Origin: a virus
Direction: 5' to 3' (one strand)
IMG/VR virus record: IMGVR_UViG_3300024999_000073
Location: 1 to 64,000 of that record
Length of the DNA: 64,000 nt
Below the pieces are notes generated by a model. It did no database searches and was not told where the DNA came from. It saw only the letters and a program-made list of their open reading frames with translations. Numbering within the stretch: position 1 is the stretch's first letter; each line of letters opens with the position of its first letter. A program made the translations under genes and the position numbers. Below are positions 33,677-62,643 of the stretch, in pieces.

Positions 33677-34423
33677 TATGGCAGGCACCGCGGGAAAACG
33701 AAGCGCGTTTGAAAAAACGGGTTTTAAGGGGTAAAATTGAGGCCTCGACAGAGAGGCAGAATTGCGGATTTAGAACCGGAGGCGAAGAATGAAAATCTCA
33801 CAGCAAAAGATAAACGTGTTCTCGCAGGGGGATAACGGCCTGGAAGAACTGACATCTATTTCAATGCCGTTGGAGAAAGCATCGTCAACGTTCTTAGAGC
33901 GAGTCCTGATAGAACATTTGCATAAAGGGGATCATGATTTTATAAGCGAAACATTCTCATCGAAAAGTCTTTCACTTAGCGAAGCTGAAATAATACGCCA
34001 TATCCTCAGAAATATTCCCCCAGTATCTTCTTATCAAACCCTGAACGAGCTTATGGGCGGTGATATTACCAATGAGGATGAACTCAGGATAGCAGCGATT
34101 GGGAAGATCAGCCAGGAATATCCTGGGGTAATTATCCGCGTAATTGACGTAAGCGAATTGGCTGGCGAGATGCGGGTGCGCTTTTTCAAGGATGGTTTTT
34201 ACCAGGAGGAAAAAATCTTCCTGGACTTTAACACTAGATTTGACCCCAAAAAGATCGAAAAACCAACGAAAATCAATAAATTTGATGGCCTTAAAGATGC
34301 CATTACTTCAAATAAGTAATGAAAGCGCGAATTGAAGATCAGGTTATAAACGATGTGATTTGAGGCTCAGAAAAATGATGTGAGCTAGAAAATTTCCAAA
34401 AATGTCATGTGGTTTCAATGTGA
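33677..34423 (+). repeat. Fixed-spacing bipartite unit 1
   Basis: CCGCGGGAAAA-N20-GGGTTTTAAGGGG at 33688; TCATGTGGTT at 34405 (+717). Confidence 0.85.
33789..34319 (+). CDS. Hypothetical protein (interior of unit 1)
   Basis: 176 aa; RBS GGAGG. Confidence 0.6.
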   Translation: MKISQQKINVFSQGDNGLEELTSISMPLEKASSTFLERVLIEHLHKGDHDFISETFSSKSLSLSEAEIIRHILRNIPPVSSYQTLNELMGGDITNEDELRIAAIGKISQEYPGVIIRVIDVSELAGEMRVRFFKDGFYQEEKIFLDFNTRFDPKKIEKPTKINKFDGLKDAITSNK

Positions 34424-34445
34424 TTTAGAAAGCGGAGGCAAAGCG

Positions 34446-35219
34446 ATGGAAGTCCAGGTAGGAAGTCCTAATATAGGCATAGCGTGGCCGAAACAAGACT
34501 ACGCCGTCTACCGGCTTAGCGACGCCGATATTGTCGCCGACGAAGACCAGGCGGTCTTGATAGCGTTGCGAGACTCGATGACCGCGTGTGCGTTTGGGAT
34601 AGGGGACATCGTCACCAAAACCGTGATTGCCAACGCTAGCAAGGGCTACCAGGTGACGTCAGACCGCATATTTAGAGCGATAGCCAGGTTTTGTGGGCGG
34701 TCGGCCAGGACAGTTCGCTACTATTTCGAGACCGCCAGTTTCTTTGGGCCGGAGACGCGGGAGGAATTCGGGATACTTAGTTTCTCTCATTTCGTCTTTG
34801 CCAGGTCTTGCGGCGACAAATGGCGCGAAGTATTGGAGTACGCGGCCATAAATCCAGGCGCGACCGTAGGCGAGCTTATAGTCTTGTTCCAAGACGAAGC
34901 CCCAGTAGATACAGAGGCAAATAACGAAATGCGTGAACGTTCGCAGATTTACACAGGGGAGGCGGAGGATCTGGGAGAAGCCGACGCCGAAGAAATGTGT
35001 GAACGTTCGCAGGATTACATAAGGCAGCATGAGGCATACGGGATGATCGTCGAGCTTGGGGAAGTGAAGGAGAGTTTGACGGCATTAGCCAGGATAGTAG
35101 GTGGAGTCGCAGACCGGGAATTGCAACACCGGGCAGAGCGAGCGATAAAAGAACTGGACAGAGTATTGGGGGAATTGGTCAGAATAGCTGAGCGGAAGAT
35201 GACCGTAGAAACAGGATAG
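34446..35219 (+). CDS. LmbU-like HTH DNA-binding protein
   Basis: FGIGD...GRSARTVRYY...F...R...LSFSHF...L..A...TVGEL; RBS GGAGG; contains two 14-bp palindromes. Confidence 0.55.
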   Translation: MEVQVGSPNIGIAWPKQDYAVYRLSDADIVADEDQAVLIALRDSMTACAFGIGDIVTKTVIANASKGYQVTSDRIFRAIARFCGRSARTVRYYFETASFFGPETREEFGILSFSHFVFARSCGDKWREVLEYAAINPGATVGELIVLFQDEAPVDTEANNEMRERSQIYTGEAEDLGEADAEEMCERSQDYIRQHEAYGMIVELGEVKESLTALARIVGGVADRELQHRAERAIKELDRVLGELVRIAERKMTVETG

Positions 35220-35264
35220 AACGTGGTATAATTTTCGAGCCTCTTATGATCCCCTCACGGGGAA

Positions 35265-35299
35265 ATAGTCGGACGTTCCGCACGTCCGACTATCGTTTT
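35265..35299 (+). terminator. Intrinsic terminator
   Basis: ATAGTCGGACG-N7-CGTCCGACTAT followed by CGTTTT. Confidence 0.6.
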
Positions 35300-35400
35300 A
35301 GGGGTATTTGAAGCCACTGGGAGAGATTGAGGCAACGATACAAAGGATACCGTGGTACATACATGTTAAATGAAGGAACCAAGCATCAAAACCCGCCTGG

Positions 35401-35426
35401 CTTAGCACATTTGTTCTAAGAATGGC
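35401..35426 (-). promoter_or_regulatory. SOS-box-like operator; inverted partner of 45351-45376
   Basis: Reverse complement GCCATTCTTAGAAC-AAAT-GTGCTAAG. Confidence 0.55.
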
Positions 35427-35439
35427 CTTCATAGAGACT

Positions 35440-35471
35440 AAAAAAGCCCGCGTGGTTAGCGCGGGCTTTTG
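35440..35471. terminator. Bidirectional terminator ending the leftward early operon
   Basis: AAAAAAGCCCGCG-N7-CGCGGGCTTTT. Confidence 0.85.
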
Positions 35472-35487
35472 GTCTTATTCAATTATT

Positions 35488-35922
35488 CTACCCCCAGCTT
35501 GCGTCTTCCCAATCTGGAAGAGCGTGTACTATCTTTGCACTCAAGTCGTTACAGAACTTGCCAAGTTCTTTGAACAACTTCGTCTTTGGAACGATGCCTT
35601 CTGCACACTGATACTGCAGGCATTCCGCAGACTTGAGGACTTTGATCAAAGAGTCGCATGGTGTGATGAGATATACGTAGTCTAGAGGGCGGAATTTCGG
35701 AGCTTCGCCGACTCCATAGCGCTGCTCGATGGCGGCGACGTTCATTGCAAACAGAGCCTTACCAAGCGCCTCGGCTTCTTTCTGGGTTTCGACGCCGAAA
35801 TGACCAGGGGAATGGCTATAGTAGGGCGTCATGTGCTGGCCCTTGCTAGACAGCAAGAATGCCAGGATACGATTGATAGTTACATCTTCGACTATAGAAG
35901 CACTCATTTTCGTTTTCTCCAT
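35488..35922 (-). CDS. Conserved-type phage early protein
   Basis: NVAAIEQRY...LKSAECLQYQCAE. Confidence 0.65.
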   Translation of the reverse strand: MEKTKMSASIVEDVTINRILAFLLSSKGQHMTPYYSHSPGHFGVETQKEAEALGKALFAMNVAAIEQRYGVGEAPKFRPLDYVYLITPCDSLIKVLKSAECLQYQCAEGIVPKTKLFKELGKFCNDLSAKIVHALPDWEDASWG

Positions 35923-36021
35923 TTCTCGATAACGGTTGCAACAGTCATCATGCCAATGATGATGAGCAGGGCCACGCCCTGCATTGTATTATTGAACATA
36001 GCTACGTTAACGTTATTCATG

Positions 36022-36303
36022 TCAATATTCTCCAGGTAAAAGCAGAGTTGTTGCACTATGGTCGGCCTCGGTGATGATCCACAACTTGCCATTGTGGGTG
36101 TCATAGGCGCTGAGAATGCGCAGAAAGCCGCACTCATAGGCGAGGTCATTCTCCATCTTGTCCATCGGAGTCATATCCCCCCAATCACAGGAGGCGTGAC
36201 GCTGGAGATAGTCCCCCAGCTCAACTCCCAGCGCGAAAGCGCCGGGAGTCGCAACGATCTGGCCTAGCTCGAAATTAGTGACGATAGTAGGTATAGTGTT
36301 CAT
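36022..36303 (-). CDS. Plasmid/phage-related small conserved protein
   Basis: LGQIVATPGA...RH...DWGD...LSAY...WIITEAD.S.TT.LLP.EY. Confidence 0.75.
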   Translation of the reverse strand: MNTIPTIVTNFELGQIVATPGAFALGVELGDYLQRHASCDWGDMTPMDKMENDLAYECGFLRILSAYDTHNGKLWIITEADHSATTLLLPGEY

Positions 36304-36307
36304 GGCA

Positions 36308-36904
36308 TTACTCCATCAACCGGGCCACAGCCACTTCTGCGTAGTCTTTCTTGAGATGCCAGGCCAGGTTTTCCTGTGCATCATCCATGAGACCGCTTTT
36401 CTGGTTATCGCTCCCGTAGTAACCCCAGCAGGAGTCCACAGACTCGCCGTTCTTATCCAGCAAGTCGTAACCGAACACATATCCGTTGACGTAATTCCCA
36501 TAGACCGCGACATCAGCCTCCAGGCAGCCGATGGCACGTCTGCGTGTTTTTGCGCTGATGATCTTGCAACTGTACTCCTTCAAGACTTCTTCGCGTTCCA
36601 CGAAAATCACACCGACTTGCCCGCTGTCCCACGGATCCCTAAAGCCTGTTGTATTCAGAGCAATGCCAGAATGCTCGTACATATACACAGGCAGCCATAT
36701 AGCGCCAGTGTCTTTGATATGCTCCATCACTTTATCTGCATTGCGAAAGTGGTGCTTATCCCCCAAGTCATAGCGGCTATGGAAACAGACCAGAGTACCC
36801 AGGTTATCCCACTCCTCGCGTGGGTTGACCGGATTATCGTCCGTGTACACCTTGAGAATGTAACCGGACCCCATTTCAATCGTTTCGACCAAATTCTCGT
36901 CCAT
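36308..36904 (-). CDS. Conserved-type phage early protein
   Basis: NPREEWDNLG; LPVYMYEHSG; WDSGQVG; SCWGYYG; AAGGAGTCT RBS. Confidence 0.75.
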   Translation of the reverse strand: MDENLVETIEMGSGYILKVYTDDNPVNPREEWDNLGTLVCFHSRYDLGDKHHFRNADKVMEHIKDTGAIWLPVYMYEHSGIALNTTGFRDPWDSGQVGVIFVEREEVLKEYSCKIISAKTRRRAIGCLEADVAVYGNYVNGYVFGYDLLDKNGESVDSCWGYYGSDNQKSGLMDDAQENLAWHLKKDYAEVAVARLME

Positions 36905-36940
36905 TTCAGACTCCTTATTATCTTGCGAATATTCACGGAT

Positions 36941-37144
36941 TTAGTGCTGGCAGGGCACTATGGGAAGCAGTCGACCAGGAAAATACTTGGAGACTGCATC
37001 TTGGACTTCAGATGTACGCTGGCTTGCTTTGACGCTCATCCACTTTAGGCCCTGCTCAGACCAGTCTTGAAGTTCGTAAAGAGGCATTTCTCCATGCTCT
37101 TTGTGTACGACGATGCGTGCTTTCCGTTCTGGTTTTGGGTTCAT
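36941..37144 (-). CDS. Hypothetical protein
   Basis: AAGGAGTCT RBS. Confidence 0.6.
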   Translation of the reverse strand: MNPKPERKARIVVHKEHGEMPLYELQDWSEQGLKWMSVKASQRTSEVQDAVSKYFPGRLLPIVPCQH

Positions 37145-37413
37145 AGAGACTCCTTTCTTTCAAACTCGTATTCAATGACCAAAATCGTATCTTTGCGTGG
37201 GTACATCATGGTGCTGCCGCCAAAGCTACACTCGTATGAGACGTAGAAATAACGGAATCGTGGAGTCGTATCATTACTTTCGTAAATGATACTTCCGACG
37301 ACATCCACGTTTCTGTCTGAGAATAGTTTCAGAAGCTCGTCATTTGTAGCCACATGGTCAAACTCATAAAGAGTCCAACCTGATGGGTTTCCCAACAACA
37401 CTCTGCTAAACAT
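37141..37413 (-). CDS. Hypothetical protein
   Basis: Start MFSR placed by the AAGGAGTCT RBS at 37415-23. Confidence 0.55.
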   Translation of the reverse strand: MFSRVLLGNPSGWTLYEFDHVATNDELLKLFSDRNVDVVGSIIYESNDTTPRFRYFYVSYECSFGGSTMMYPRKDTILVIEYEFERKESL

Positions 37414-37424
37414 AAGACTCCTTT

Positions 37425-38948
37425 CTACTTCCAACCTGAGAATGCGTGTTCGGCTATCATTCGAGAGAGTTGAGCGGTCAGCTCAGCCGGGTTAGTGATA
37501 CCGGAGTCGAAGGCGATAAAGGCATCAGCGAGAGACTGCATACGCTCATTGTTATAGCGCCCCAATTGCACGTACATAAGGCGCGCGCCTGACTCCTTCT
37601 TGGTTTTCTCGAAGGCATCCATAACCTGAGGCGACGGGTTACAGATACCATCACTAATCATCATAATGTCGATAGCCTTATCTCCATGTGACCATTCTTT
37701 GATCCTGGCAATGGCATGAGTGAGGACAGCGTCAAAGTTAGTGCCGCCGCCCCTGGAGTAACTCGCCCACTTGCAATGGGCTTTCCAGTCATCCTTGTCC
37801 GTAACGTGGTGATCGTCATCGACATCGGACTCAAAGGTATAGAGTTCATAACTCCTATCCTTCAAGTCTTCCATCGTAGCCTTAGCGACGCCCATGGCCA
37901 CGCCCTTAGCCGCAACCGCATTACTGCCCTGGCCCCATCCCATGCTACCGGAGTCGTCGACGTAAGCAGCGAAGTTACCGCCTATCACGCTTGACTCCAG
38001 GGGTTGCCAGCCTGGTAGACCGTCGCTCGCGAACCTCTGGATTCTCTTGGCGCGTACAGCCACGTGAACAGATGGGTGCATGAGCGCGATTTCGTGAGGA
38101 AAGATATGAGACACATCCTTTGTATTCTCCACCTTGGCGGCGGGTCCGAACTTACTGCGCTTGCAGTCCCGTATCGTCTGTTTTGCAATCCCCTTAGCGC
38201 GCCCTAACTGTAGAGCCAGCATAGAGAAATCGCTATCATTTGCCATCTCCAGAATTTCGGAGATGTCGTCAAGCTCTGTGGTAAGGCCGGGGTCGATCCC
38301 CCAGCCGCGCATAAACGCATTGACCTTATTTGCAGCTTGCCCTGCTTCATAAACAGCAGAGGCAACTACCTGGCCTTTGACCGGATCCTGCCTAATCTTC
38401 TCAATACCTTCGACAGCTTCCCTGGCGACTTCAGTGGCCATTTGACGGATTTGTTCGGCGTTCTCGAACTTCTGAGTAGCGGCATTACTCACCATTTCCT
38501 GACCGAGTTGATCCTCAGGCGCACTCTGTAGAGTCTCAGCGGCCTCCTGTTCCTCTTTCTTAGCGCGCTTTTCCAAGTCATCAGCCTGTCGCTGGCGATT
38601 TAGCGCATTCTGGATAGAGTCGTCGGTTCTCAGCGACTCCCAGAGCAGAGACGAAGCGGCTAAACTGGCCGGGATATTCCCTGCTGTGGACTGGACTGAC
38701 TCCTTGAAGTCCTTATCGCAAAGAGTCCAATCCATAATAGCCTGGTTGACCTTGCGTTCAGGAGGCGCGTCGTCGATAACCTGAGCGCCGGACTTATAGA
38801 GGCCCAGGAAAGAGTCGCTGAGAAGATCATGTTCGCCGTCGTTGGACGGTGCAGAGTCTACCGTAGTCTGGAGAACACGGGTGATAGCTTTCTCACCCGT
38901 GCTCACCCTGACCGTATTGATCTTAGCTTTGAGAGGTATTTTTTGCAT
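37425..38948 (-). CDS. vWA-domain protein (ViaA/CoxE-like MoxR partner)
   Basis: MIDAS VDDSGSM; GGTNF; ISDG; adjacent to AAA+ gene. Confidence 0.85.
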   Translation of the reverse strand: MQKIPLKAKINTVRVSTGEKAITRVLQTTVDSAPSNDGEHDLLSDSFLGLYKSGAQVIDDAPPERKVNQAIMDWTLCDKDFKESVQSTAGNIPASLAASSLLWESLRTDDSIQNALNRQRQADDLEKRAKKEEQEAAETLQSAPEDQLGQEMVSNAATQKFENAEQIRQMATEVAREAVEGIEKIRQDPVKGQVVASAVYEAGQAANKVNAFMRGWGIDPGLTTELDDISEILEMANDSDFSMLALQLGRAKGIAKQTIRDCKRSKFGPAAKVENTKDVSHIFPHEIALMHPSVHVAVRAKRIQRFASDGLPGWQPLESSVIGGNFAAYVDDSGSMGWGQGSNAVAAKGVAMGVAKATMEDLKDRSYELYTFESDVDDDHHVTDKDDWKAHCKWASYSRGGGTNFDAVLTHAIARIKEWSHGDKAIDIMMISDGICNPSPQVMDAFEKTKKESGARLMYVQLGRYNNERMQSLADAFIAFDSGITNPAELTAQLSRMIAEHAFSGWK

Positions 38949-38957
38949 GGCAACCTC

Positions 38958-40130
38958 CTAGAACGGCGGCGGCTCGTCATCGTGTTGAGGCTGAGGGCCG
39001 CGCACGAACTCAGACAGAGACCGCAAAAGCGCGTTATGAGCTTCGAGATAACGCTCATCTTTATCATCGCCGCCGACCAAAGCCAGGATATTAGGAACTT
39101 CTTGGTTCAAGACCTTACCAAGCTCAATCGAAGCCAGGCGGCGGTCAGTTATAGAGGCGGCCAGTTGTTTCATCTTAGCGTAAGCATACTTCATTGCAGT
39201 CTCGATAGCAGCGGTAACGGGGTCGAGCAGAGAAGCGCCGACCAACTCCGCCCAATCGCGAGCTTCTTCCGGAGTCTTTGTGGCCCAGGCGTATTTAATC
39301 ATATCCATGGCTTCAGGACTGACCCGATTGAAGTCCTCGGCGTCCTGATAGAACGCAGACAGTCTATAGAGCATCCAGTTCCAGATCGTCATACGGCGAG
39401 GGTTAGGATGTCCAAAAGCGCGGACAATCTTACCGTCAGAACCCTTGAGTCCCTCGCAGGCGGTGTTAGCTATGTCTCTACCAGCCTCCGAGACGCATTT
39501 TACGGCATTAGGTCCCGGATTGAAGTGGCGCACCCTATAAATCACGGCGGCGTCTGGAACTCCATCGACGACCATTTCAGAGTTCATGGCAGCGAGGGCG
39601 TTTACGCCTACTGCGATAGGATCGAGTTTGACGTCAGGAACGTGGTAGTAGAGACCGATACGATCCAGCAGCGCCTCAGTTCTTGCGCTATCGGGTAAAG
39701 AGTTGGCTGTGCATATAGTCGAGGGAACATCTTGAAGTGGTATATCGAGTCTATCCATAACATCCATGAGAATGTCATAGACAGCATCAGAAGGGCGACC
39801 GAATTCATCTGCGATATAAGCGCCAATGCTCTTTTGATATGGAGTACCGGCGACGATCATATTCCACTCACTCTTAGTCGTGAAAGCTGGCACATCCAGA
39901 TAGCCCGTCATTTTTTCTGTGGGCGTAGTTGGGTTGAACCTGGTCATGACATAATTGTCGCCGAAGGCAGCTTTAGTGACTGCTCTTGCCATGCGAGTTT
40001 TACCCAGGCCAGGTCCACCAACCATGACGACATGCACGCCAGCCAAGAAACCGGCGATGCAGACCTGTTTCATTTCCTCGGCATATGCGCCGACGAAATG
40101 ACCGAAACCGTTATTACTTGGTGTGTTCAT
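38958..40130 (-). CDS. MoxR-family (RavA-like) AAA+ ATPase
   Basis: GGPGLGKT; IADEFGR; TANSLP; EALLDR. Confidence 0.85.
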   Translation of the reverse strand: MNTPSNNGFGHFVGAYAEEMKQVCIAGFLAGVHVVMVGGPGLGKTRMARAVTKAAFGDNYVMTRFNPTTPTEKMTGYLDVPAFTTKSEWNMIVAGTPYQKSIGAYIADEFGRPSDAVYDILMDVMDRLDIPLQDVPSTICTANSLPDSARTEALLDRIGLYYHVPDVKLDPIAVGVNALAAMNSEMVVDGVPDAAVIYRVRHFNPGPNAVKCVSEAGRDIANTACEGLKGSDGKIVRAFGHPNPRRMTIWNWMLYRLSAFYQDAEDFNRVSPEAMDMIKYAWATKTPEEARDWAELVGASLLDPVTAAIETAMKYAYAKMKQLAASITDRRLASIELGKVLNQEVPNILALVGGDDKDERYLEAHNALLRSLSEFVRGPQPQHDDEPPPF

Positions 40131-40142
40131 TGATAGACTCCT

Positions 40143-40667
40143 TTAGTTGAGCTTGTCTTTATCTTCTTCGCGCCGAACGACGTCATTGGCGTGTTTGAGA
40201 GTATTGGCGAGGTTGAGAATCTTGTCCTTGTTCTCGACGAAAAACTGCATTCCACCAACCATTTCCTCGACAAGGAGGCGTCGGGCTTCGTCTTCGTCTT
40301 TGATGCCTTCTTCCCGCATAAAGCGGGCGACATCTTCGTCTGCTCTACGTTGTTCGGCCTCTACGATTCTTTTTCCCTCTTTGCCGAAAACATTCGCGAA
40401 CATCTGGTCGCGTTTCTTGATGGGGATGCCATTGAGATTATCATCGTACCAGACAATGGAAAACGCAGATTCTATCAAATCAGCCTGCACAGCCGCAGCC
40501 GCGGGTCTGTGCGCGTACTCAGGCGAGGCGTCGAACCATGCTTTCAGTTCGACGAGCATTTTGCGGTGGGCATTTTCAATGCCGACCTCGGCGATAGCCT
40601 CGCGATAATTATCTTTGGAGGCGACTGCCGATGGATAGCCATTGACGATCTTCACGATCTTGTTCAT
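40143..40667 (-). CDS. Hypothetical protein
   Basis: Start MNKIV placed by the AAGGAGTCT RBS. Confidence 0.65.
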   Translation of the reverse strand: MNKIVKIVNGYPSAVASKDNYREAIAEVGIENAHRKMLVELKAWFDASPEYAHRPAAAAVQADLIESAFSIVWYDDNLNGIPIKKRDQMFANVFGKEGKRIVEAEQRRADEDVARFMREEGIKDEDEARRLLVEEMVGGMQFFVENKDKILNLANTLKHANDVVRREEDKDKLN

Positions 40668-40683
40668 TGATAGACTCCTTTCT

Positions 40684-40890
40684 TTATCCAATATCAGCCA
40701 ATTGTTGCAGGCGTTCTTCTATCCAACGTCTGCGCAGTGGCAGAACATTATCTCGCGTCAAAGCCGCGAGTTCATTAGTCAGGAAGAACTTTTCCGAGAC
40801 CAGGGACATGTGCAGTAATTCCATGTATGCGGACTGGTATTTTTCTGCAAAGTCCGACCATTGTTGTGGGGTGACATAGTGAACTTGCAT
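40684..40890 (-). CDS. Hypothetical protein
   Basis: AAGGAGTCT RBS. Confidence 0.6.
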   Translation of the reverse strand: MQVHYVTPQQWSDFAEKYQSAYMELLHMSLVSEKFFLTNELAALTRDNVLPLRRRWIEERLQQLADIG

Positions 40891-40891
40891 A

Positions 40892-41833
40892 TCAGACTCC
40901 TTTACTTCTGCAATATTGCAGCCACATAGCCGCCACCTTTGGCGTCTCTATCGAGGCTGCATCTAAGAGGTCAACGCGATCGCGTTTCTCCATAAAGCTG
41001 ATTTCAGTCGGCTCCACGTTATTAGCGTAGAGATCGACGCATACGCGCATTCTTGCCTCCCTCAGGGCGTCGGCTGATAGATACGTTCTACTTGCAAAGA
41101 CCGCATCGAGAATAGCGCAGGCAGTCTTACGGCGCATATTCTTGAGGACAGCGAGGAAGTCGGGGCTATTCTCGATAGTCCTGACAGTTTCGGCTTCTTT
41201 CATATCGGCGAGCAAAGCCGTAGCAGGTGGTGAGTTCTCGCCGTCGACAGGCACCTCGAACAGACCTGAGGCAAAGCGATTGCGTTTCCAGGCTTCGACG
41301 ACGTCGCCATCTGGCAGAGCCAGGGGCGAAAGTTCACCGGGTCTAGAGCGGATTTTAGGGCAGCCGCAGGACGGGCAAGAGACAACGTGATAAGCCTCTT
41401 CCACTTGAGAGCTAATTGCCTCCTCCAAACAAGTGCAGACCCAGGTTTCCTTAGGGCCAGCGGGTCTACCGCGTCGCCCCAATTTATCCTCAATAGCATC
41501 GTGGATATGTTGATCTTCAGCAGACAGCTTGAACTCTTTAGGTTCGGCGTGATACAATTCTACAGTCTGCGCGCCTTCGCCAAGAGCTATCTGATAGACC
41601 TCATGAGCGAGTTGTTCGGACTTGCACAAAAACACACCTTCCTGAAAGACGACGCGGTCGGTTGAGACCGTATTACGTCCGGCGAGATTGACACGGCGTT
41701 GGAGAGGACTGTCCTCGAAGCTGGTTGAATCCTTACGCCGTTTACCGACGTGAAAGCCAGCGATGCGCTTCACGCGGTTATAGAAAGTCGTGGGCGGCTT
41801 CCTGCCGTCCCATTCTATTAGGACTTGCCACAT
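40892..41833 (-). CDS. Hypothetical protein; possible Cas2/VapD-like N-terminus plus zinc ribbon
   Basis: MWQVLIEWD...FYNRV...FQEGVF; CTC...CPSCGC. Confidence 0.45.
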   Translation of the reverse strand: MWQVLIEWDGRKPPTTFYNRVKRIAGFHVGKRRKDSTSFEDSPLQRRVNLAGRNTVSTDRVVFQEGVFLCKSEQLAHEVYQIALGEGAQTVELYHAEPKEFKLSAEDQHIHDAIEDKLGRRGRPAGPKETWVCTCLEEAISSQVEEAYHVVSCPSCGCPKIRSRPGELSPLALPDGDVVEAWKRNRFASGLFEVPVDGENSPPATALLADMKEAETVRTIENSPDFLAVLKNMRRKTACAILDAVFASRTYLSADALREARMRVCVDLYANNVEPTEISFMEKRDRVDLLDAASIETPKVAAMWLQYCRSKGV

Positions 41834-41835
41834 AG

Positions 41836-42195
41836 TTAGACTCCTTCATCGTTTTTGATACGTTCCAATTCATATTGAGCCGTAGTCTTGAGCGGGATGC
41901 CGCGCGCCTGCAAGCCCAGTTGCCAGGCGTCGACAAAGTCTTGTAGGCTTTTTCCAGACTGTTTAGGCATAGCGGGGGCGAACTTATGAGCGTCGGTACG
42001 TTTAGGTCGGATAGCCACGTAGGTAGCGTCATCGATCAAAACCGTAACCAAAGTATAGAGATAGTCATCGATAACCAGCACGCCGGGGCTGAAATCATGG
42101 GCGTCGACGAATTCGCGCACACGTTCAACGGCGTCGATAGAGGCTATCAAAAAAAGATTGCCATGTTTCTTGAGACCATCCAAGATTTCGCTCAT
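41836..42195 (-). CDS. Hypothetical protein
   Basis: 119 aa; overlaps upstream stop. Confidence 0.55.
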   Translation of the reverse strand: MSEILDGLKKHGNLFLIASIDAVERVREFVDAHDFSPGVLVIDDYLYTLVTVLIDDATYVAIRPKRTDAHKFAPAMPKQSGKSLQDFVDAWQLGLQARGIPLKTTAQYELERIKNDEGV

Positions 42196-42425
42196 GGCAT
42201 CTCCGGCATAGAAATCCAGGGGTGTTGATCGTCGTATGTATACGACACAACTTCGAGAGAGATTTTACGACAATTCGGTAGCCACAAACCCGCTATTCTG
42301 TCGAACTGATTGCAGATAGCGATACTTCTATTCGTAAAATCAACAGTTGTTATTGTGATTTCCACAATTTTGACGACACTGCCATCTTTCAGGAAGCAAA
42401 CGGGGTGTTGACTGTAGTCGATCAT
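42192..42425 (-). CDS. Hypothetical protein
   Basis: AAGGAGTCT RBS. Confidence 0.55.
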   Translation of the reverse strand: MIDYSQHPVCFLKDGSVVKIVEITITTVDFTNRSIAICNQFDRIAGLWLPNCRKISLEVVSYTYDDQHPWISMPEMP

Positions 42426-42582
42426 AGCAGACTCCTTTCGTTGAACGTTGATTGAATTGACACCTTGAGTCTATGGCAGATATACGATCTGTCGTAGACG
42501 CCAGGGGGCGAGTCGCGTGTAAAGCGGCTCGCCCATTGCAGTTTACGTCGATTCGCGATTGATCGATTCGTCGTCCTGCGGT

Positions 42583-42639
42583 TCATCCACGTTTCTTCAA
42601 AGCTGACAGCAAGAACAAAATGAACAGCAGGAGTTCCAC
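42583..42639 (-). CDS. 18-aa hydrophobic peptide MELLLFILFLLSALKKRG
   Basis: GAAAGGAGG RBS 6 nt before GTG. Confidence 0.45.
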   Translation of the reverse strand: MELLLFILFLLSALKKRG

Positions 42640-42653
42640 AGTCTACCTCCTTT

Positions 42654-42905
42654 CTATCTTTTCATTAACTCTTCTACATCCTTCGCCAGGGCGACGTAAG
42701 TGCGGCCAAGGCGTTTATGGCCTACTTTTGTAAAGAAGGCTTTATGGAAGGTCAGGATGAGGGTAAAATTTGCGTCTGGATTAGCTTGGATAGCATCTCG
42801 CAGAGCTTGTTCGGCCTTATCGCCATTGCTGTCGAAATCAGCGCTTTCGACCGGGCGGGGCAAAGTAGCGGCCAAAGCTACAAATGTCACTTCGGTATCA
42901 TTCAT
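42654..42905 (-). CDS. Hypothetical protein
   Basis: 83 aa; RBS GGAGG. Confidence 0.6.
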   Translation of the reverse strand: MNDTEVTFVALAATLPRPVESADFDSNGDKAEQALRDAIQANPDANFTLILTFHKAFFTKVGHKRLGRTYVALAKDVEELMKR

Positions 42906-43501
42906 TTAGAACCTCCGTAGAATAGTTTCATAATTTCACCGAATCTATGTTCGTCTTCTTCGGTGATGGGAGTACAAGGTACTTCAGGTGTGGCGTCCGT
43001 GTTGTTCTGTTGTTCTGTCGCTGATCGAGCGAAAGTATTGGCGATCCCACGCAAAGCGCGCTGTTCTAGAGCTTGCATGACGACGCTGATAGACTCGACG
43101 GCAGATGCGGATTGATTATCCGGGCACAACAGAGCCGTTAGAAGTGCAGCCACTGCCCTGACAGCATCTCCTGCACGTGTTTCGTCTTTGGCGACGCCGA
43201 TAGTGACGATAGCCATCGTGCCATGCTCATTGGATGGCACCGTAGCCGCGAAAGAAAGCTCGACTTGTTCCGAGGTAAAGGTTTCAAGGCGAGTGACATT
43301 CTTGTTGTGGATATGGGCGGCGCACAGGAGCTTAATCAGAATGGCTTCCTTGCGTCCATCGGAGTTGCCGGTAAGCACAGCGAAAAGAGCGTCGATAGTT
43401 TCAGCAAAGACACGTGTTTGCTCCTTTTCTTTACTGTTACTACAGTCGCTCACGATTTTGAGGACGCTATCTGAGGTGTCGTACGAGAGATTGATCTTCA
43501 T
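42902..43501 (-). CDS. Hypothetical protein
   Basis: Start MKINL placed by the AAGGAGTCT RBS. Confidence 0.6.
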   Translation of the reverse strand: MKINLSYDTSDSVLKIVSDCSNSKEKEQTRVFAETIDALFAVLTGNSDGRKEAILIKLLCAAHIHNKNVTRLETFTSEQVELSFAATVPSNEHGTMAIVTIGVAKDETRAGDAVRAVAALLTALLCPDNQSASAVESISVVMQALEQRALRGIANTFARSATEQQNNTDATPEVPCTPITEEDEHRFGEIMKLFYGGSK

Positions 43502-43610
43502 AGCAGACTCCTTTCTATGGTAGGTACCGCGGGAAAATGCGGGCGTTATTAAAAAAGGGGTTTTAAGGGGGCATTTTGTCAATTTTTGACTCATGCTCCC
43601 TCACATATTA

Positions 43611-43919
43611 TTAGGCGTCGACTACTTTTACGCCAGGGAAGGCTTCGGCGTACGAGACCTCGTGTTCGGACAGACAGGTCTCGAACAAGTCAATAGCCTC
43701 ATCCTGAGAGACAGGGATGAGCGTGTCCTGTTCGCCCTGCCAGCAGGTGAGATTGACTATGAAGTAATTGCCGTTTGGGGTGCGGTACAGGAATTCATTG
43801 CGCCCGTGACGCTCGAAGTTATGACCGTCCCAGTATGCGTCATGGGCGATCAAAGTCGCCGTTTGGACGCTATAGCGTTTGCGGTCGATTATTCTTACAA
43901 AAGACTTAGGTGCGTGCAT
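43611..43919 (-). CDS. Conserved-type phage early protein (interior of unit 2)
   Basis: IIDRKRY..TATLIA...LYRTPNGNYF. Confidence 0.7.
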   Translation of the reverse strand: MHAPKSFVRIIDRKRYSVQTATLIAHDAYWDGHNFERHGRNEFLYRTPNGNYFIVNLTCWQGEQDTLIPVSQDEAIDLFETCLSEHEVSYAEAFPGVKVVDA

Positions 43920-44080
43920 TACAACATCCTTTCGTTAGTTTGGTCTATGCCTGAATTGGACTGTGCCACTGGATTGAGTATATATCGCTACCGCCAGTTC
44001 GATAGCAGCGACAAGAAGTCGAAAGCATATTTTTGTATTAATCCATAAGCGCCTCCATATTCCAGTATCCGCATGGTGTT

Positions 44081-44109
44081 ATTGTATCACATTTACGAGA
44101 GGTTGTCAA
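44081..44109 (-). promoter_or_regulatory. Sigma70-type early promoter
   Basis: TTGACA-17 nt-TACAAT on the minus strand. Confidence 0.8.
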
Positions 44110-44472
44110 TTTATTGCCAGGTCTGGTTTTGCGGCATAAGCCAGGGGCAGAGGCAAACCACGGATCACGCAGATTACACAGATTTTTCTATTGATGTAGG
44201 TTCAATGTGATGTGGTCTCGAAAGCATGTGCGCCAAAAAATTTCATGTGGTTGATGCTTCTATTAAAGCGAAAAGCCGCCAGGGGTAAAACTGGCGGCTT
44301 TACGTTCCATACGCGAGGCATTTCCCCTGATTTTTGAGACAAAAAAACCGCCGAACCCGTGACCGTGTGGTCTTGGGATCGGCGGCTTTTCGCAAAAGCA
44401 CGCAAAAGCGTCTTACAGCCCCAGTTGGGGCCAAGAGTCGGGCAGGTCCCGACTAGATTACCAGTTAGTCTC

Positions 44473-44832
44473 CTACAGTCCGGCTCCGCGAAGCCTGTCA
44501 ACAATCTCGGCTAACTGCCAGAGGTAATTGTCGGCTTTGAGTGTGGCGCTCATACGTTTGATGGTCTGGAAAGGGACCTGCTTTTTGAGGAATTTATCAA
44601 GCAGGTATGTGACCATAGCTCGAATAGCCACAGAGTCTGTGGCTAGAGTAGCTTTGCGGTTGACCAGCCATTCCTCGCCCCTGGCGAGGATTACGGTATA
44701 GTTCTCGTCCGCCTTCTCATCGAAGGCAACGAAAACGTCGCCGCTTGGGACTTCGCCAACCTGGAAGAAGTCATTCTCGTCAAGGTGCAGCATGGCGAGG
44801 ATGTTGGAGAAGTAGACCGGAGTGGCGTTCAT
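44473..44832 (-). CDS. Hypothetical protein
   Basis: Start MNATP with RBS GAGGAG. Confidence 0.55.
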   Translation of the reverse strand: MNATPVYFSNILAMLHLDENDFFQVGEVPSGDVFVAFDEKADENYTVILARGEEWLVNRKATLATDSVAIRAMVTYLLDKFLKKQVPFQTIKRMSATLKADNYLWQLAEIVDRLRGAGL

Positions 44833-45086
44833 CGTCTCCTCTCCACTGCCAGGGTTCCACCGCCCCTGGCGGCTCGATTCCAAGTTTCAGCGCGCATCAT
44901 AGTCAGCGCCCATTGTCGCTCGGACGCAGGTCTGATGACCAAGTTCCAGTGCCCCTCGCAAGAGGGAAGCACAGAACCGTCACCATCTACACACCATTCC
45001 ACAGATCCTTCGATCCGCGAAATGGCGACGCCGAGGTACCCCGCCCATCGGCGTTTTCCGAAACCGGTTAGGTTCTCAGTTATCAT
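44829..45086 (-). CDS. Hypothetical protein
   Basis: AAGGAGTCT RBS. Confidence 0.5.
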   Translation of the reverse strand: MITENLTGFGKRRWAGYLGVAISRIEGSVEWCVDGDGSVLPSCEGHWNLVIRPASERQWALTMMRAETWNRAARGGGTLAVERRR

Positions 45087-45250
45087 TAGACTCCTTTTGC
45101 CCGTATAGGGCGAATGGGTGCGGCTGGAGTCGGCCAGCCCCGATGAGTAGATTGTCTACCCATGTGCGCCCTGGAGTTTACTGCGGTCACTCCAGCTACT
45201 CCACGTTTGATGACGCAGTGGGATAGCGCATGTCGGTATACAATCGAGAT

Positions 45251-45986
45251 CCGCGGGAAAATGAATCACGACACGAAAAAGGGGTTTTAAGGGGCCTTTT
45301 GAAGGATGAGGGATGAAGGATGAAGGACGACAGGGGAGTCTTAGCGTAGTGCCATTCTTAGAACGATTGTGCTAAGAACGGAGGGATGGAAAGGACAAAC
45401 ATATTATATGAAGGACAATACGCTTGGAGGCGTACAGAATCGGGTATCCTGGGGTAACTGGGGGATTCTGGCGGATACCTGGCGTGATACCGGTATTCTG
45501 GCGGATAATGCCAAATGAGGGAAAAAAGCGCGTCTGTAGAAACTGAGACGACAAAAAGCCTATGATTGGGCTGTTTTATTTGTGCTATAACTCCCGACCC
45601 CTCGCAACGAAGCGCCGGTGTTGCAGGTTCACCATACGTCTATAGAGGATACGACTCGGCTGATATAGCGCAGTGGGCAAGTGCGTGGGCTTGTCTTGCA
45701 CGCTACGCGTGCAGTTTCAAGCCATTAGCCTTGTGCATAAGCAAATATCAGTCATGGTTGTTGAGACAAAGCGGCAATCTGTGGCCGGTGTGCGCCACGC
45801 TGCTATGCGTGTATGATGGTATGTCTCAACAGAGTCGCAGGCAAAGCTAAGACTGTTTTCCTGGGTTCAAGTTCACCAAGCAGGAGTTGGTCGAGGTTGG
45901 GAGCGCCGATGTTAAAGATCGTCTCACGGATGTGAGATCGAGCGATTTCGTCATCTCGGAAAAATTTCATGTGGTTTCAAGTGTGA
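45251..45986 (+). repeat. Fixed-spacing bipartite unit 3
   Basis: CCGCGGGAAAA-N20-GGGTTTTAAGGGG at 45251; TCATGTGGTT at 45967 (+716). Confidence 0.85.
45591..45903 (+). ncRNA. Candidate ~310-nt multi-stem ncRNA
   Basis: Paired termini and at least 8 nested helices; wobble pairs are G-U on the + strand. Confidence 0.6.
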
Positions 45987-46056
45987 GTCGCCACACGTGA
46001 GGGCCGGTGAGACCAGGTGGTCTCATAAGCCCTCACGCGAGGCGTCTTGCTTTTCT

Positions 46057-46072: not shown

Positions 46073-46148
46073 GTCTGCCCTGGCGGGCTGTAGGCTATCC
46101 TTGGCGGGCTATTGAGTCAGTGGTAAGGTACAAAAATGAGCTTTAAAC

Positions 46149-46185
46149 CGTTACCCCCTGCGGGTTGGGACCGCAGGGGGTAACG
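46149..46185 (-). terminator. 15-bp GC-rich hairpin downstream of gene 46212-46874
   Basis: CGTTACCCCCTGCGG-N7-CCGCAGGGGGTAACG. Confidence 0.75.
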
Positions 46186-46211
46186 TTGCTATGCAGTTGT
46201 AGAGTCTGGTA

Positions 46212-46874
46212 TTAGCTGGTTGCGGGTGCCAGGCTTGCGCGGATATCCTCAGGCAACGCCAGGACAAACGCCGCGCGCATGGCCTCAGGCAATGCAGCGA
46301 TGGCGGTCTGCATGGCGGAGAGCGTTTCTTCTGCCTTGCTCAGTTTTTCGCTGAGCATGGCTTTCGTCTCGCCCTGCGGAGCATGCTCCGCAGGATACCA
46401 GTCGCGTACCACATGGCTAATCGCCTGGCTAAAAGCCAGGCCAACATTGTGTACCTTGCCTACTTTGGTGACTTGCAGCCCTCCAATGCCCCAGGGTACG
46501 GCGGGCACGTCATTGCCGTTTGCCTTGCTGAGAATCTGCAAAGTTGACTCCTCGATGCCGGGTTCGGTTTTTTTCCAACCCTCATCGGGGGTGATAAGGG
46601 TGAGGCTTGCGTTATGCGCGCCTGAGTCAATGTTGATCTTGCTGATTGACTCAAACCCGTGTGCTGCTTGGCGGAGGCATTCACGCTTGTATGCCTCCAC
46701 GCGTGGAAGGGAAAAGTTGATTGTGGGTGAAACAGTCACTTTCGCCCATGTGCACTTGCCGGTGAGGGTAATCAGGATTGACTCCGCTACGATCGCGGAG
46801 GGTTGTACCTCGGTGGAGGGTCGCGCCTCAATGGGCGCGGGTACGGTTGTCGGGGTAGTGCTTTTTGTGGACAT
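46212..46874 (-). CDS. Hypothetical protein; first gene of the leftward cluster
   Basis: Start MSTKST placed by the AAGGAGTCT RBS. Confidence 0.65.
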   Translation of the reverse strand: MSTKSTTPTTVPAPIEARPSTEVQPSAIVAESILITLTGKCTWAKVTVSPTINFSLPRVEAYKRECLRQAAHGFESISKINIDSGAHNASLTLITPDEGWKKTEPGIEESTLQILSKANGNDVPAVPWGIGGLQVTKVGKVHNVGLAFSQAISHVVRDWYPAEHAPQGETKAMLSEKLSKAEETLSAMQTAIAALPEAMRAAFVLALPEDIRASLAPATS

Positions 46875-47828
46875 TGTTAGACTCCTTTGGGTTATTGGGT
46901 ATGGGTTGCGATAGGGTGAGAGGCTTGACTCAGTGCTACTTTGCGAGTAGCACGGACAGGCCAAACAAGATAAAAAATCCGATCAAAATTAGGTAAATCA
47001 TTTTCGACTCCTTTTGAAATGGGAATGGGTAAGCGCACGCGTAGAGTCTCAATCCACGCGTACATGCTTGCCAATAGGGTGAAAAAATACAACATGGTAC
47101 AATTTTACCCTGTTTGAATTTGTGCCCTTTAAGCGTGAATGATACCCCAACCTGTAGCCAAAATCTGCTTTAATTTGCTATTACCCCCCATCTATGGGGT
47201 ACTGTGCCTTGCCCTATGTTAATGTATTCATGTATTTTATAGATCACTATATGAGTTTTACTCATATAGTGCTACCAGGTGATACTTGGTGATACTGTTT
47301 TTCTCCAATACTCTAATCTTTCGTTCTATGGATTATACGTAGTTTGGCATATCACACCCGTTTTCTTTAACAATCACGCTTTTCTCGATCTTGTGGCTGT
47401 TTGACTCTCGTGTGTGCCTGTGTGCCTGGTACGTCGGCCCTGTGTGCTCCCCTCTTCTGTGTATGCTTGTGACCCTGTGACTCACCGAAACCCGTGAACG
47501 TTCGCACATATCGAACGAGTCATGCCACTATGGTGGCATTGACGCCGCACGCACAGCGCCCGCGCCCGTGCAGACAAGGGAGTCGGAGGCTAGGCCGCCC
47601 ATGCGCATAGCACGAGTTAAAAACCAGGTCGAGAAAGCAAGCAAAGACCCTATAGAACGCCCTTGCGCATAGCGTGAGTCAATTTGGGGGTCAAAAAGCC
47701 AGAAGCGGGTATCACAGATCGCCCTTGTGCGTAGCGTGGATCGATTCTAGCATCAGAAAGGGGAAAGCACAACCTACAGTCGCCCAGAGAAGCAATCGCG
47801 GTAGAAAAGTGAGAGCAAGTCGGGTATA

Positions 47829-48734: not shown

Positions 48735-50450
48735 ATGAGCAACATCGCAGTACCTGCCGATGAGCAGACCCTGACCATAGTAAGGGAGAAATTAGGATTA
48801 AGTTCTAATGATTTAGAGCAGATCATGGAACAACCCTGGTTTGGGGCTGCGGTAAAGGAAGCCTGGCGTGAGAGTCAAAAAATTGCAAAGGTGGAGAGGA
48901 TTAGTTCCAATCTCAGTAAATATATTCATAATCCTATCGGATTCTGCACAGATTATCTAGGAGTAACCTTTACCGATGACATCTTGAAACTTATCGAAGC
49001 CGTACAGAAGTCTCCAGTTGTAATCGCGAAATCCGGGAACGCCGTTGGCAAGAGCCACTCGGCAGCCAGAATAGCGGTCTGGTATTATCTTGTGCATAAG
49101 GATGCCAAAGTGTTCATGACCGCAGCGCCGCCACTAGAGAACCTGATGAAAATCTTATGGGCGCAGGTTATGGGCATCTCCCGCAGACATCCAGAGTTAT
49201 TCATAGGTCATCGTATCAGGGCTATGGACATTCGTAGACACGACGAGAGCTTTATGACCGCAGTCGCAATACCAATCACAGGCGATAGCCACGAAAGAGA
49301 AAGTAAATTTAGTGGCAAGCACTCCGGACATCTGATGTTTGTGGTAGACGAAGGCGATGCCGTCCCAGATGAGGTCTACAAAGGCATCGAAAGTTGTATG
49401 TCTGGAGGCGACACAAAACTATTGATTATGTTCAATCCCAGGGCTAAGTCTGGTGCAGTCTATATCAAAGAAACCAGTGGAGAAGCTCATATCGTCGAGA
49501 TTTCTGCCATAAATCATCCTAATGTGATTACAGGTGCAGATGTCATCCCTGGCGCTGTTAGCCGGGAAACCGTGATAAGAAGGATCAACCAGTGGTCTAG
49601 ACCACTGCACAGGGACGAAAAACCAGATGAGAACTGCTTTGAAATGCCTGAATTCCTGGTCGGGATATCGGCTGTGGGTCAGGATGGTAGAGAGTACCCG
49701 CCATTGCAAGCGGGATGGAGAAAGGTTACTCAAGCCGAGCTTTGGTATATGGTCTTTGGCAGGTATCCCGCTCAGTCCGAACAACACCTGATCTCAGAAG
49801 CCTGGATTACGTTGGCGAGAGCGAGATGGGATCAATACGTCGCCGATCACGGAGAATTGCCTCCACCTGGTAAACGTCCAATCGCTGGTTTGGATTTAGC
49901 TGAGTTCGGCGGCGATTATAACTTTCTTGCGCTGAGATATGGGGGCTGGGTGCCTAATATGGAATTCTGGGCTGGTATGGACACTGACGCCAGCGCAGAT
50001 AAAGCATTAGAGATGTGCCTGAAAAAGAACGTAGACATTTGTAACGTCGACGGCAATGGCATCGGTAGCGGAGTCGCTCCCGCTATGGCAAGAAGGAAAG
50101 GCATCGACGACGATCTTATCACAGTCGCAGTCAAAACCAGCGAGAAACCTTCGCCTATTTATAGAGTAGACGAAGGTGAGTTCGGGATTTTGAGGGATCA
50201 ACTGGCATGGAGACTCAGAGACTGGTTAAAGGATGATCCTCAGGCTATGCTGCCTCCAGATCAGATGCTATTGGAGGAGCTTAGGATAGCGAAGTACCAC
50301 CCCCAAACTAAGACCAGGAAAATCACACTCATGGATAAGGATATGATGCGTAAACTCCTAAAAAGAAGCCCGGATAGATTCGACGCACTTTGCCTTACCT
50401 TTAATTTCTATACTCGCCCTACCTGGAGCTTCGTCGACGAAACTAAGTGA
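48735..50450 (+). CDS. terL: Terminase large subunit
   Basis: KSGNAVGKS; VVDEG; FNP; GLDLA; SPDRFDAL. Confidence 0.95.
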   Translation: MSNIAVPADEQTLTIVREKLGLSSNDLEQIMEQPWFGAAVKEAWRESQKIAKVERISSNLSKYIHNPIGFCTDYLGVTFTDDILKLIEAVQKSPVVIAKSGNAVGKSHSAARIAVWYYLVHKDAKVFMTAAPPLENLMKILWAQVMGISRRHPELFIGHRIRAMDIRRHDESFMTAVAIPITGDSHERESKFSGKHSGHLMFVVDEGDAVPDEVYKGIESCMSGGDTKLLIMFNPRAKSGAVYIKETSGEAHIVEISAINHPNVITGADVIPGAVSRETVIRRINQWSRPLHRDEKPDENCFEMPEFLVGISAVGQDGREYPPLQAGWRKVTQAELWYMVFGRYPAQSEQHLISEAWITLARARWDQYVADHGELPPPGKRPIAGLDLAEFGGDYNFLALRYGGWVPNMEFWAGMDTDASADKALEMCLKKNVDICNVDGNGIGSGVAPAMARRKGIDDDLITVAVKTSEKPSPIYRVDEGEFGILRDQLAWRLRDWLKDDPQAMLPPDQMLLEELRIAKYHPQTKTRKITLMDKDMMRKLLKRSPDRFDALCLTFNFYTRPTWSFVDETK

Positions 50451-62400: not shown

Positions 62401-62643
62401 CTATCCGTCTCTAGATTCTCGTACATAAGCTGGTTGTCGTGTAACTTCCATAGCGAGTTTCACACGCGGGCACGTCATCCGGTCTTGCTTGAAGCCTAAC
62501 TTCTTGTAGATCGCACTCATGTGGTTCTTGACTGTGCCAGGCTGGATATTCAATATCTCAGCGATTGCATTGTTGGAATATCCATAAGCTACCAGGCCCG
62601 CAATCTGGTGCTCGCGCTTAGATAAATCGGTGAAGTCGCTCAT
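62401..62643 (-). CDS. LuxR/GerE-type HTH regulator
   Basis: LSKREHQIAGLVAYGYSNNAIAEIL...TVKNHMSAIYKKLG. Confidence 0.9.
   Translation of the reverse strand: MSDFTDLSKREHQIAGLVAYGYSNNAIAEILNIQPGTVKNHMSAIYKKLGFKQDRMTCPRVKLAMEVTRQPAYVRESRDG

Follow-up and report, generated by a model that had tools for sequence, protein, structure and literature searches.

Two unlike DNA motifs paired three times at a near-constant distance around unrelated interiors in a groundwater phage genome

The 82,286-bp genome of an uncultivated groundwater phage (IMG/VR record IMGVR_UViG_3300024999_000073) contains three units in which two different short DNA motifs, here denoted A and B, lie 717, 716 and 716 bp apart (start of A to core of B in units 1, 2 and 3, respectively) around interiors that show no homology to one another. 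The analysed window is the stretch of bases 1-64000 of this record, which is linear, lacks end repeats and has an estimated completeness of 95%. The samples with this phage are groundwater and soil metagenomes, and Pfam, PHROGs and protein searches yielded few annotated relatives. The interpretation that we tentatively favor is that A and B are paired sites acting at the DNA level, which would frame exchangeable slots for accessory DNA and whose spacing would be under selection.

Motif A, CCGCGGGAAAA-N20-GGGTTTTAAGGGG, has exact matches at 33688, 43527 and 45251, all on the plus strand, compared with none in 100 shuffled sequences. The core of motif B, TCATGTGGTT, is found at 34405, 44243 and 45967, with one further, unrelated 10-mer at 62517. 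These positions, the spacing and the common orientation of the units had been reported in a first-pass annotation made from the sequence alone, and all were reproduced exactly. The motif copies and the hexamers around the first copy of B are the following.

33677-33731, plus strand: motif A, copy 1, TATGGCAGGCA plus CCGCGGGAAAA-N20-GGGTTTTAAGGGG, directly after the stop codon of a plus-strand gene
43516-43570, plus strand: motif A, copy 2, between the stop codon of the 102-aa gene of unit 2 and the ribosome-binding site (RBS) of the minus-strand gene 42902-43501
45251-45294, plus strand: motif A, copy 3, without the TATGGYAGGYA extension
34398-34418, plus strand: motif B, copy 1, AAAAATGTCATGTGGTTTCAA, ending 28 nt before the ATG of the next gene
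44236-44256, plus strand: motif B, copy 2, followed by two hairpin terminators (~44274-44300 and ~44345-44385)
45960-45980, plus strand: motif B, copy 3, with a strong hairpin (~45989-46032) and then a T-rich run after it
34353, 34378, 34407 and 34418: ATGTGR hexamers around motif B, copy 1

Each half of motif A is present in three copies genome-wide and nowhere else with mismatches allowed; the full motif B, the 17-mer AAAAATKTCATGTGGTT, likewise has three copies in the whole genome, even at three mismatches. A loose scan for A-B pairs on both strands detected no degenerate fourth unit, and A and B are always paired, in a single (plus) orientation, in all three units. The arms of A are identical at 24 of 24 positions across the copies, as are the 16 fixed positions of B, and the first 13 nt of the A spacer and all flanks of both motifs are at background identity. 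The starts of the two arms are 31 nt apart, that is, three helical turns, and a conserved A5-6 tract lies just before the second arm. The left extension of A, TATGGYAGGYA, is common to copies 1 and 2 only, in agreement with the earlier description. The arms are not reverse complements of each other (TTTTCCCGCGG versus GGGTTTTAAGGGG), B is unrelated to A, and neither motif is a palindrome or an inverted repeat. Each motif is located in an unusually long intergenic spacer, and B is embedded in a cluster of ATGTGR / TTTCA(A)TGTGR sequences (3-4 within ~70 nt per unit, versus 71 ATGTGR genome-wide).

No conserved promoter, terminator or hairpin was found in A or B, and the familiar candidates were dropped from sequence: A as a sigma-54, extracytoplasmic function (ECF) or sigma-70 promoter, either motif as an intrinsic terminator, and a conserved hairpin in A. 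A G-quadruplex in A would have loops that are too long and, in unit 1, would lack a fourth G-tract; IHF and DnaA boxes in B are partial matches only; and an apparent mimic of a CRISPR repeat after B is not conserved between the copies. The hexamer CCGCGG has 23 copies in the genome and is not otherwise avoided. The invariance of the A arms and the B core amid diverged surroundings suggests that these are selected, sequence-specific recognition sites. Furthermore, the cargo and the surrounding operon are on the plus strand at unit 1 and on the minus strand at unit 2; because the units are co-oriented while cargo and operons point either way, their function would be exerted on DNA rather than on RNA or a transcript. 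As part of the joint interpretation, then, A and B may be DNA-level recognition sites under purifying selection.

By our own arithmetic, the chance of two more pairs falling within +/-1 bp of the first distance is roughly (3 x 3 / 82,286)^2, or ~1e-8, so the equal spacing is a real observation. The distance is 715 bp at unit 3 in one strain, found in run X5, which carries a 94%-identical version of 45585-46052 with 27 substitutions and four indels (+2, -1, -1, -1; net -1) just upstream of B3; in this strain, the B3 core TCATGTGGTT is kept and its flanks are changed.

As the first-pass annotation stated, the interiors are non-homologous. MAFFT aligned the motifs only, leaving the rest at background identity, and neither blastn (word size 7) nor blastp of six-frame peptides between units recovered anything but the motifs. 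Compared in register and without gaps, with either A or B as the anchor, the interiors are identical at a fraction of 0.24-0.29 of positions, and 794 shifted registers give a null of 0.251 +/- 0.018; the comparison of units 1 and 3 is marginal (0.28-0.29, rank 21 of 794 offsets). Length and end motifs are conserved and interior sequence is not, as claimed. The contents of the interiors also correspond to those described previously (a plus-strand 176-aa open reading frame (ORF) with an RBS, a minus-strand 102-aa ORF with a sigma-70 promoter, and a structured stretch).

33789-34319, plus strand: unit 1 cargo, gene for a 176-aa ORFan with the RBS GGAGG
43611-43919, minus strand: unit 2 cargo, 102-aa gene of a highly conserved family
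44081-44109, minus strand: sigma-70-type promoter of the unit 2 cargo, TTGACA-17-TACAAT plus TG
45295-45959, plus strand: unit 3 interior, no long ORF, essentially non-coding and structured
45408-45518, plus strand: possible 36-aa small ORF in unit 3, spanning a 30-nt tandem repeat (45448-45507) that encodes a repeated GILAD peptide
45557-45572: weak terminator in unit 3

The 176-aa protein of unit 1 found only itself among 5.8 billion clustered proteins and 1.8 billion cluster representatives, and this unit has no promoter or terminator of its own. In unit 3, the stretch 45585-45910 folds better than its shuffles on both strands (z = -2.9 and -2.5) and has no match in Rfam. A purine-rich GGATGA/AGGA run lies upstream of the possible small ORF, right after A3. 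Pfam and PHROGs searches with the cargo and neighbour proteins of the units gave nothing significant.

The unit 2 cargo is the most informative of the three interiors. Its 102-aa product belongs to a family of more than 455 homologues, with 70-83% identity among those listed and nearly all 102 aa long, which are encoded in chromosomes of Chloroflexota/Anaerolineae (including one 1.1-Mb contig) and in 20 other viral contigs. The family has the motif WDGHNFER...GRNxFLYRTP and no Pfam family, and the AlphaFold model of the protein (pLDDT 81) has no fold match in the PDB. At the closest viral locus, the homologue is an ordinary moron, with promoter, gene and terminator. Judging from these homologues, the unit 2 cargo was acquired horizontally, and it is probably a phage-borne accessory gene; the same homologues point to Chloroflexota as the putative host. 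Given that the cargo was acquired horizontally and the length of the unit is unchanged, the equal length would require either selection or a measuring mechanism.

The frame itself appears to be confined to this phage. At 50 loci of the 102-aa homologues, in Chloroflexota and other viral contigs, neither A nor B was found near the gene (0 of 50), so the frame does not travel with the cargo. The region has no match at the DNA level in the phage collection. The exact A pattern is absent from IMG/VR, where looser versions gave chance matches only, with no B at the expected distance, and where B has 20 matches, the number expected by chance; the flanking proteins together with TerL revealed no related locus there either. 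Among other metagenome contigs, only two near-identical fragments of the same phage contain motif A. Five Chloroflexota genomes that carry a homologue of the 102-aa gene contain no copies of the motifs, and 401 genomes of the same Chloroflexota class yielded 2 matches with three mismatches, versus 1 for a reversed control. These chance-level counts across 406 Chloroflexota genomes indicate that the frame is not a repeat of the likely host group.

Strain variants provide additional evidence. Two Joint Genome Institute (JGI) contigs from other samples, L024 and L025, are pieces of the same phage genome, with 99.6-99.7% identity, and confirm unit 2; contigs from other samples (L024/L025 and Logan) also show units 1 and 2 to be physically linked. 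The remaining evidence comes from low-depth assembled Logan contigs, from four runs over 32.5-47.5 kb, with one depth figure per contig. At the left side of the units, contigs of two of these runs stop at the 3' edge of A1. Two neighbouring contigs of X5, ending at 33731 and beginning at 33738, are separated by 6 nt where contigs normally overlap by 30 nt, and a contig of X9 stops at 33728. The break at 33728-33738 may mark a point where strains branch, or a physical discontinuity of the DNA (an end or a nick) beside A1. One X7 contig matches the reference as far as 43568, at the 3' edge of A2, before running into 46 unrelated letters with GGAGG; another X7 contig rejoins the reference at 44332. 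The X7 variant junction has no match in IMG/VR, and the loose-end sequences of the variant contigs do not occur elsewhere in the phage genome. To the right, a mosaic boundary is apparent.

44464-44467: mosaic boundary, to the right of which L025, X9 and X14 carry different DNA

The L025 contig departs from the reference at this boundary, just right of the terminators after B2, and in L025, X9 and X14, a minus-strand gene for an 88-aa Lys/Arg-rich basic protein (L025:2886-3189) replaces the genes 44473-45086. A short L025 sequence, GGCGGGCTATT, matches 46102-46113, and hence the block that includes the genes 44473-45086 and unit 3 is apparently absent from the L025 strain. The depth of X5 contigs, ~10 left of 44455 and ~6 across 44426-46052, is consistent with a subpopulation that lacks the unit 3 block. 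Taken together, the contigs provide moderate evidence that this neighbourhood is recombinationally plastic and that joints form preferentially at the edge of A; they do not prove cassette exchange.

Under the interpretation that we favor, A and B would be two different recognition sites that function jointly, with a measured length of DNA between them. The A-B frames would define three slots in long intergenic spacers, and these slots would hold dispensable cargo, namely, the ORFan of unit 1, the acquired, promoter-bearing gene of unit 2 and the structured non-coding segment of unit 3. Recombination at or near the conserved frames would exchange this cargo, similarly to the linker or regulatory cassettes of other phages. 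We infer protein binding to the sites, cooperation between A and B, and selection on the spacing: the frame and the length of 716 +/- 1 bp would persist because contact between the factors on A and B requires a fixed geometry. Of the options offered by the first-pass annotation, exchangeable cassettes come closest to the evidence, through the strain departures at the 3' edge of A and the mosaic neighbourhood; precise presence/absence of whole units, a recombinase and circles were not found.

Several observations weigh against this interpretation. The units number only three, all of them from a single genome, and no binder of A or B was identified, the ParB-like protein encoded next to unit 1 (see below) being a lead only. 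Among the contigs listed for the four Logan runs, there is no deletion, whole-unit joint or circle with ends at A and B. The right-hand variant junctions (44332 and 44464) are beyond B rather than at B, no divergent tail follows the break at A1, and depth is low in the strain contigs; an apparent variant break at A3 (45302-45337) was discounted as it rests on a 36-nt low-complexity, purine-rich match. The interiors show no ~10.5-bp WW (A/T dinucleotide) periodicity clearly above the genome background, hence no sign of wrapping: unit 2 is just above the genome 95th percentile but at a period of 9.1, and units 1 and 3 are below it. Finally, a plain protein-bridged loop of ~700 bp should tolerate changes in length, and helical phasing is weak at that distance, so the precision of +/-1 bp is unexplained by such a simple loop; the fixed-size loops proposed in the first-pass annotation are, as stated, a physically weak option.

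It is conceivable, if doubtful, that the units reflect a DNA ruler on the kilobase scale, that is, a nucleoprotein machine that would read A and B and accept or maintain only 716 +/- 1 bp, with any content. We know of no mechanism that measures ~716 bp and of no such ruler for gene-sized DNA. Phage genomes are mosaic, and the ways in which they gain and lose accessory genes are understood only in part. Should the distance truly be under selection, there must be a machine that gauges gene-sized DNA with single-base-pair accuracy, which would be a new principle for cassette capture, long-range cooperation of sites or DNA processing; if the ruler is real, the units are a frame into which accessory DNA is fitted. 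In engineering, the A-B pair might find use as a natural landing frame.

An alternative that we regard as unlikely is that a small mobile or cassette element, itself non-autonomous, is present in three copies, with A and B as its unlike ends and an enzyme supplied in trans. In this case, mobilisation or capture would set the length, for example, through a fixed-size circular or single-stranded intermediate. The asymmetric conserved ends, the unrelated cargo that includes an ORFan and an acquired gene, the location of each unit in an enlarged intergenic spacer and the mosaicism of the region between strains all fit such an element. However, no terminal inverted repeats or target-site duplications are present (the left end and the reverse-complemented right end of the units are unrelated), and the three units have no flanking direct repeat in common. 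Neither a tyrosine recombinase (PF00589) nor a serine recombinase/resolvase (PF00239) has a match in the 82-kb record, and no transposase is among the Pfam families listed (25 of 34). The absence of A from IMG/VR, its restriction to the same phage in other metagenomes and its chance-level occurrence in the Chloroflexota genomes also argue against a mobile element, as does the lack of excision joints in the Logan contigs. To our knowledge, no mobile element has a fixed cargo length, which counts against this explanation as well.

More improbable still is that A and B are DNA-processing signals, such as terminal-repeat-like boundaries, nicks, or pauses in packaging or ejection, with the distance set by the processing machine. 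TerL, the large terminase, is encoded at 48735-50450, and units 2 and 3 are located 2.8-5 kb upstream of TerL and the packaging genes, where a leftward block of small genes without assigned function begins, and in or next to a 0.9-kb non-coding, highly structured region. The single polarity of all sites, the contig ends at 33728-33738 in two runs and the replacement of the usual overlap by a gap in X5 would also fit processing signals. Yet, unit 1 is ~14 kb from the terminase region, within an operon near the end of a rightward gene block that encodes a ligase-like gene, a DnaC/IstB-like loader and a large methyltransferase, and in the same runs, contigs run straight through A2, A3 and all B sites. 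The first-pass annotation had specifically suggested an ejection or packaging ruler matched to the tail. The tape measure fills the tail lumen before ejection. The arithmetic does not support this suggestion, given that 716 bp corresponds to 243 nm, compared with ~217 nm for the 1444-aa tape measure, and unit 1 is far from the presumed genome end.

There is similarly little to commend the possibility that A and B punctuate plus-strand transcripts of ~0.76 kb, with A near the 5' end and B as a 3' processing or stability signal before a terminator. A plus-strand hairpin terminator with a T-run lies within 20-35 nt after both B2 and B3, A1 overlaps a match to TTGAAA-17-TAAAAT, and units 1 and 3 have plus-strand features (the gene in the former, the small ORF and the structured RNA candidate in the latter). 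By contrast, A2 and A3 have no conserved promoter-like element, B1 precedes an RBS and a gene instead of a terminator, and the unit 2 gene is on the opposite strand; a fixed RNA length would also be left unexplained.

An equally improbable scenario is historical accident, in which the units descend from an old triplication of a 0.76-kb segment whose ends were conserved for separate reasons, the spacing having no function. That there are only three copies and that units 1 and 3 have marginally high identity would be compatible with such an origin. Noncoding DNA accumulates indels along with substitutions; divergence to background without net indels is implausible. Moreover, the unit 2 interior is an acquired gene with its own promoter and up to 83% protein identity to Chloroflexota, inserted with the unit length unchanged, and the chance of equal spacing is minute. 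A diverged triplication is therefore disfavoured, because the unit 2 interior was acquired and the lengths are equal to 1 bp despite background identity. Substitution-only mutagenesis by a diversity-generating retroelement is ruled out, as the in-register identity equals the null; no reverse transcriptase is among the Pfam families listed (25 of 34) either.

Limited literature and database checks agree with the first-pass statement that no element of this architecture has been described. The closest known systems are the promoter-early stem-loops (PeSLs) of T4-type phages, conserved motifs that flank ORFans and mediate gene shuffling (Arbiol et al. 2010, PMC2839356; Comeau et al. 2014, PMC4122927). 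PeSLs and the units have in common that plastic regions hold unrelated genes, mostly ORFans, bordered by short non-coding motifs that are conserved; where close relatives with PeSLs differ, the differences map to the motifs, and recombination between motifs shuffles the genes. A PeSL is, however, one composite motif, a sigma-70 promoter plus a terminator stem-loop, present on both sides of genes in dozens of copies at variable distances. The units described here, in contrast, consist of two different motifs in fixed order and orientation, in three pairs only, at 716 +/- 1 bp, and no -35/-10 element or stem-loop is conserved in A or B. When the junctions were compared with those expected of PeSL-type shuffling, contigs, all of low depth, ended or diverged at the 3' edge of A1 and A2, with the right junctions located beyond B. 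Recombination between PeSLs also yields mini-circles; no back-joint is among the joints listed for the Logan contigs.

Taken alone, unit 2 is a classic moron, in which an acquired gene under its own promoter and with terminators after it is inserted between operon genes. Unlike morons, the units have the A-B frame and a fixed size, unit 1 lacks a promoter and terminator, and unit 3 lacks a clear gene. Integrons resemble the units in that unrelated genes, promoterless or with promoters, are bounded by conserved sites, and the spacing within attC sites is better conserved than the sequence. However, integrons need the IntI tyrosine recombinase, and none was found in the 82-kb record; attC is an imperfect inverted repeat with RYYYAAC ... 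GTTRRRY cores, unlike A and B; and integron cassettes are adjacent and of variable length, whereas the units are separate and of fixed length.

Among sites that act on DNA, pacL-pacC-pacR of SPP1, cosQ-cosN-cosB of lambda and parS of P1 (box A, box B) also combine different short motifs at set distances in polar, DNA-level sites, with intervening DNA that is non-specific and bent or looped. These sites span ~80-300 bp and occur once or in identical copies, compared with 716 bp here, around whole genes, three times. ParB-parS systems comprise a palindromic 14-16-bp site and a ParA partner; A and B are not palindromes, and a gene for a ParB/KorB-like helix-turn-helix (HTH) protein lies right after B1. 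DDE transposons and miniature inverted-repeat transposable elements (MITEs) need terminal inverted repeats and target-site duplications, neither of which is found at the units. A T5-type injection stop is near the first-entering end of a genome with a large terminal repeat; the record here is linear and has no end repeats, and unit 1 is ~14 kb from the terminase region. Boundaries of direct terminal repeats are marked by read starts and enclose DNA of two-fold coverage. New here is the way two unlike motifs are paired, with gene-sized, unrelated DNA between them and a distance that varies by no more than +/-1 bp; flanking motifs as such are already known (PeSLs, boundary sequences, attC).

The neighbour of unit 1 mentioned above is a candidate site-specific DNA-binding protein.

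34446-35219, plus strand: gene for a 257-aa protein, starting 28 nt after B1, with a ParB/Spo0J/Noc/KorB-like HTH DNA-binding domain (residues 22-154) and a C-terminal coiled coil

This protein has eight homologues with 33-53% identity, and AlphaFold, run with the homologue alignment, predicted a confident helical domain at residues 22-150 and a C-terminal coiled coil. The best Foldseek matches of the domain are the ParB/Spo0J/Noc DNA-binding domains, with probabilities up to 0.99 but E values of 0.25-3. VIA-align, over 95-112 residues, gave Z scores of 8.5-9.6 for the best Spo0J/ParB/Noc structures, 7.9-8.3 for further ParB/Noc and 7.0 for KorB; no other family matched, and such Z scores are not conclusive for helical folds. 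A language-model search also pointed to a ParB-like identity, and a sequence search of the PDB with the family profile returned coiled-coil noise only. The protein lacks the N-terminal CTPase domain, and no ParA family is among the Pfam families listed (25 of 34). ParB/KorB-type proteins bind palindromes of 13-16 bp. The 14-bp palindrome TGCGAAYRTTCGCA has ~29 copies in the genome, two of them inside the 257-aa gene (34932 and 34998), in the part that codes for a low-confidence linker of the protein; this palindrome is more likely to be the natural target of the protein than A or B. One of the homologues, P0125, which is 41% identical, is encoded on an 83,161-bp contig that is probably the nearest related phage at hand.

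In the window as a whole, no tRNA or Rfam family was found, and the cumulative GC skew tracks the direction of transcription only. An Atlas search gave no usable structural match for the 250-aa protein encoded to the right of unit 3. Two long, near-perfect hairpins (45989-46032 and 46148-46186) lie between B3 and the minus-strand gene 46212-46964, and the second of these resembles a terminator of that gene. Finally, the early leftward operon at 37425-40130 (minus strand) encodes a MoxR-type AAA+ ATPase (38958-40130) followed by a protein with weak vWA similarity (37425-38948), together forming a MoxR-vWA pair.

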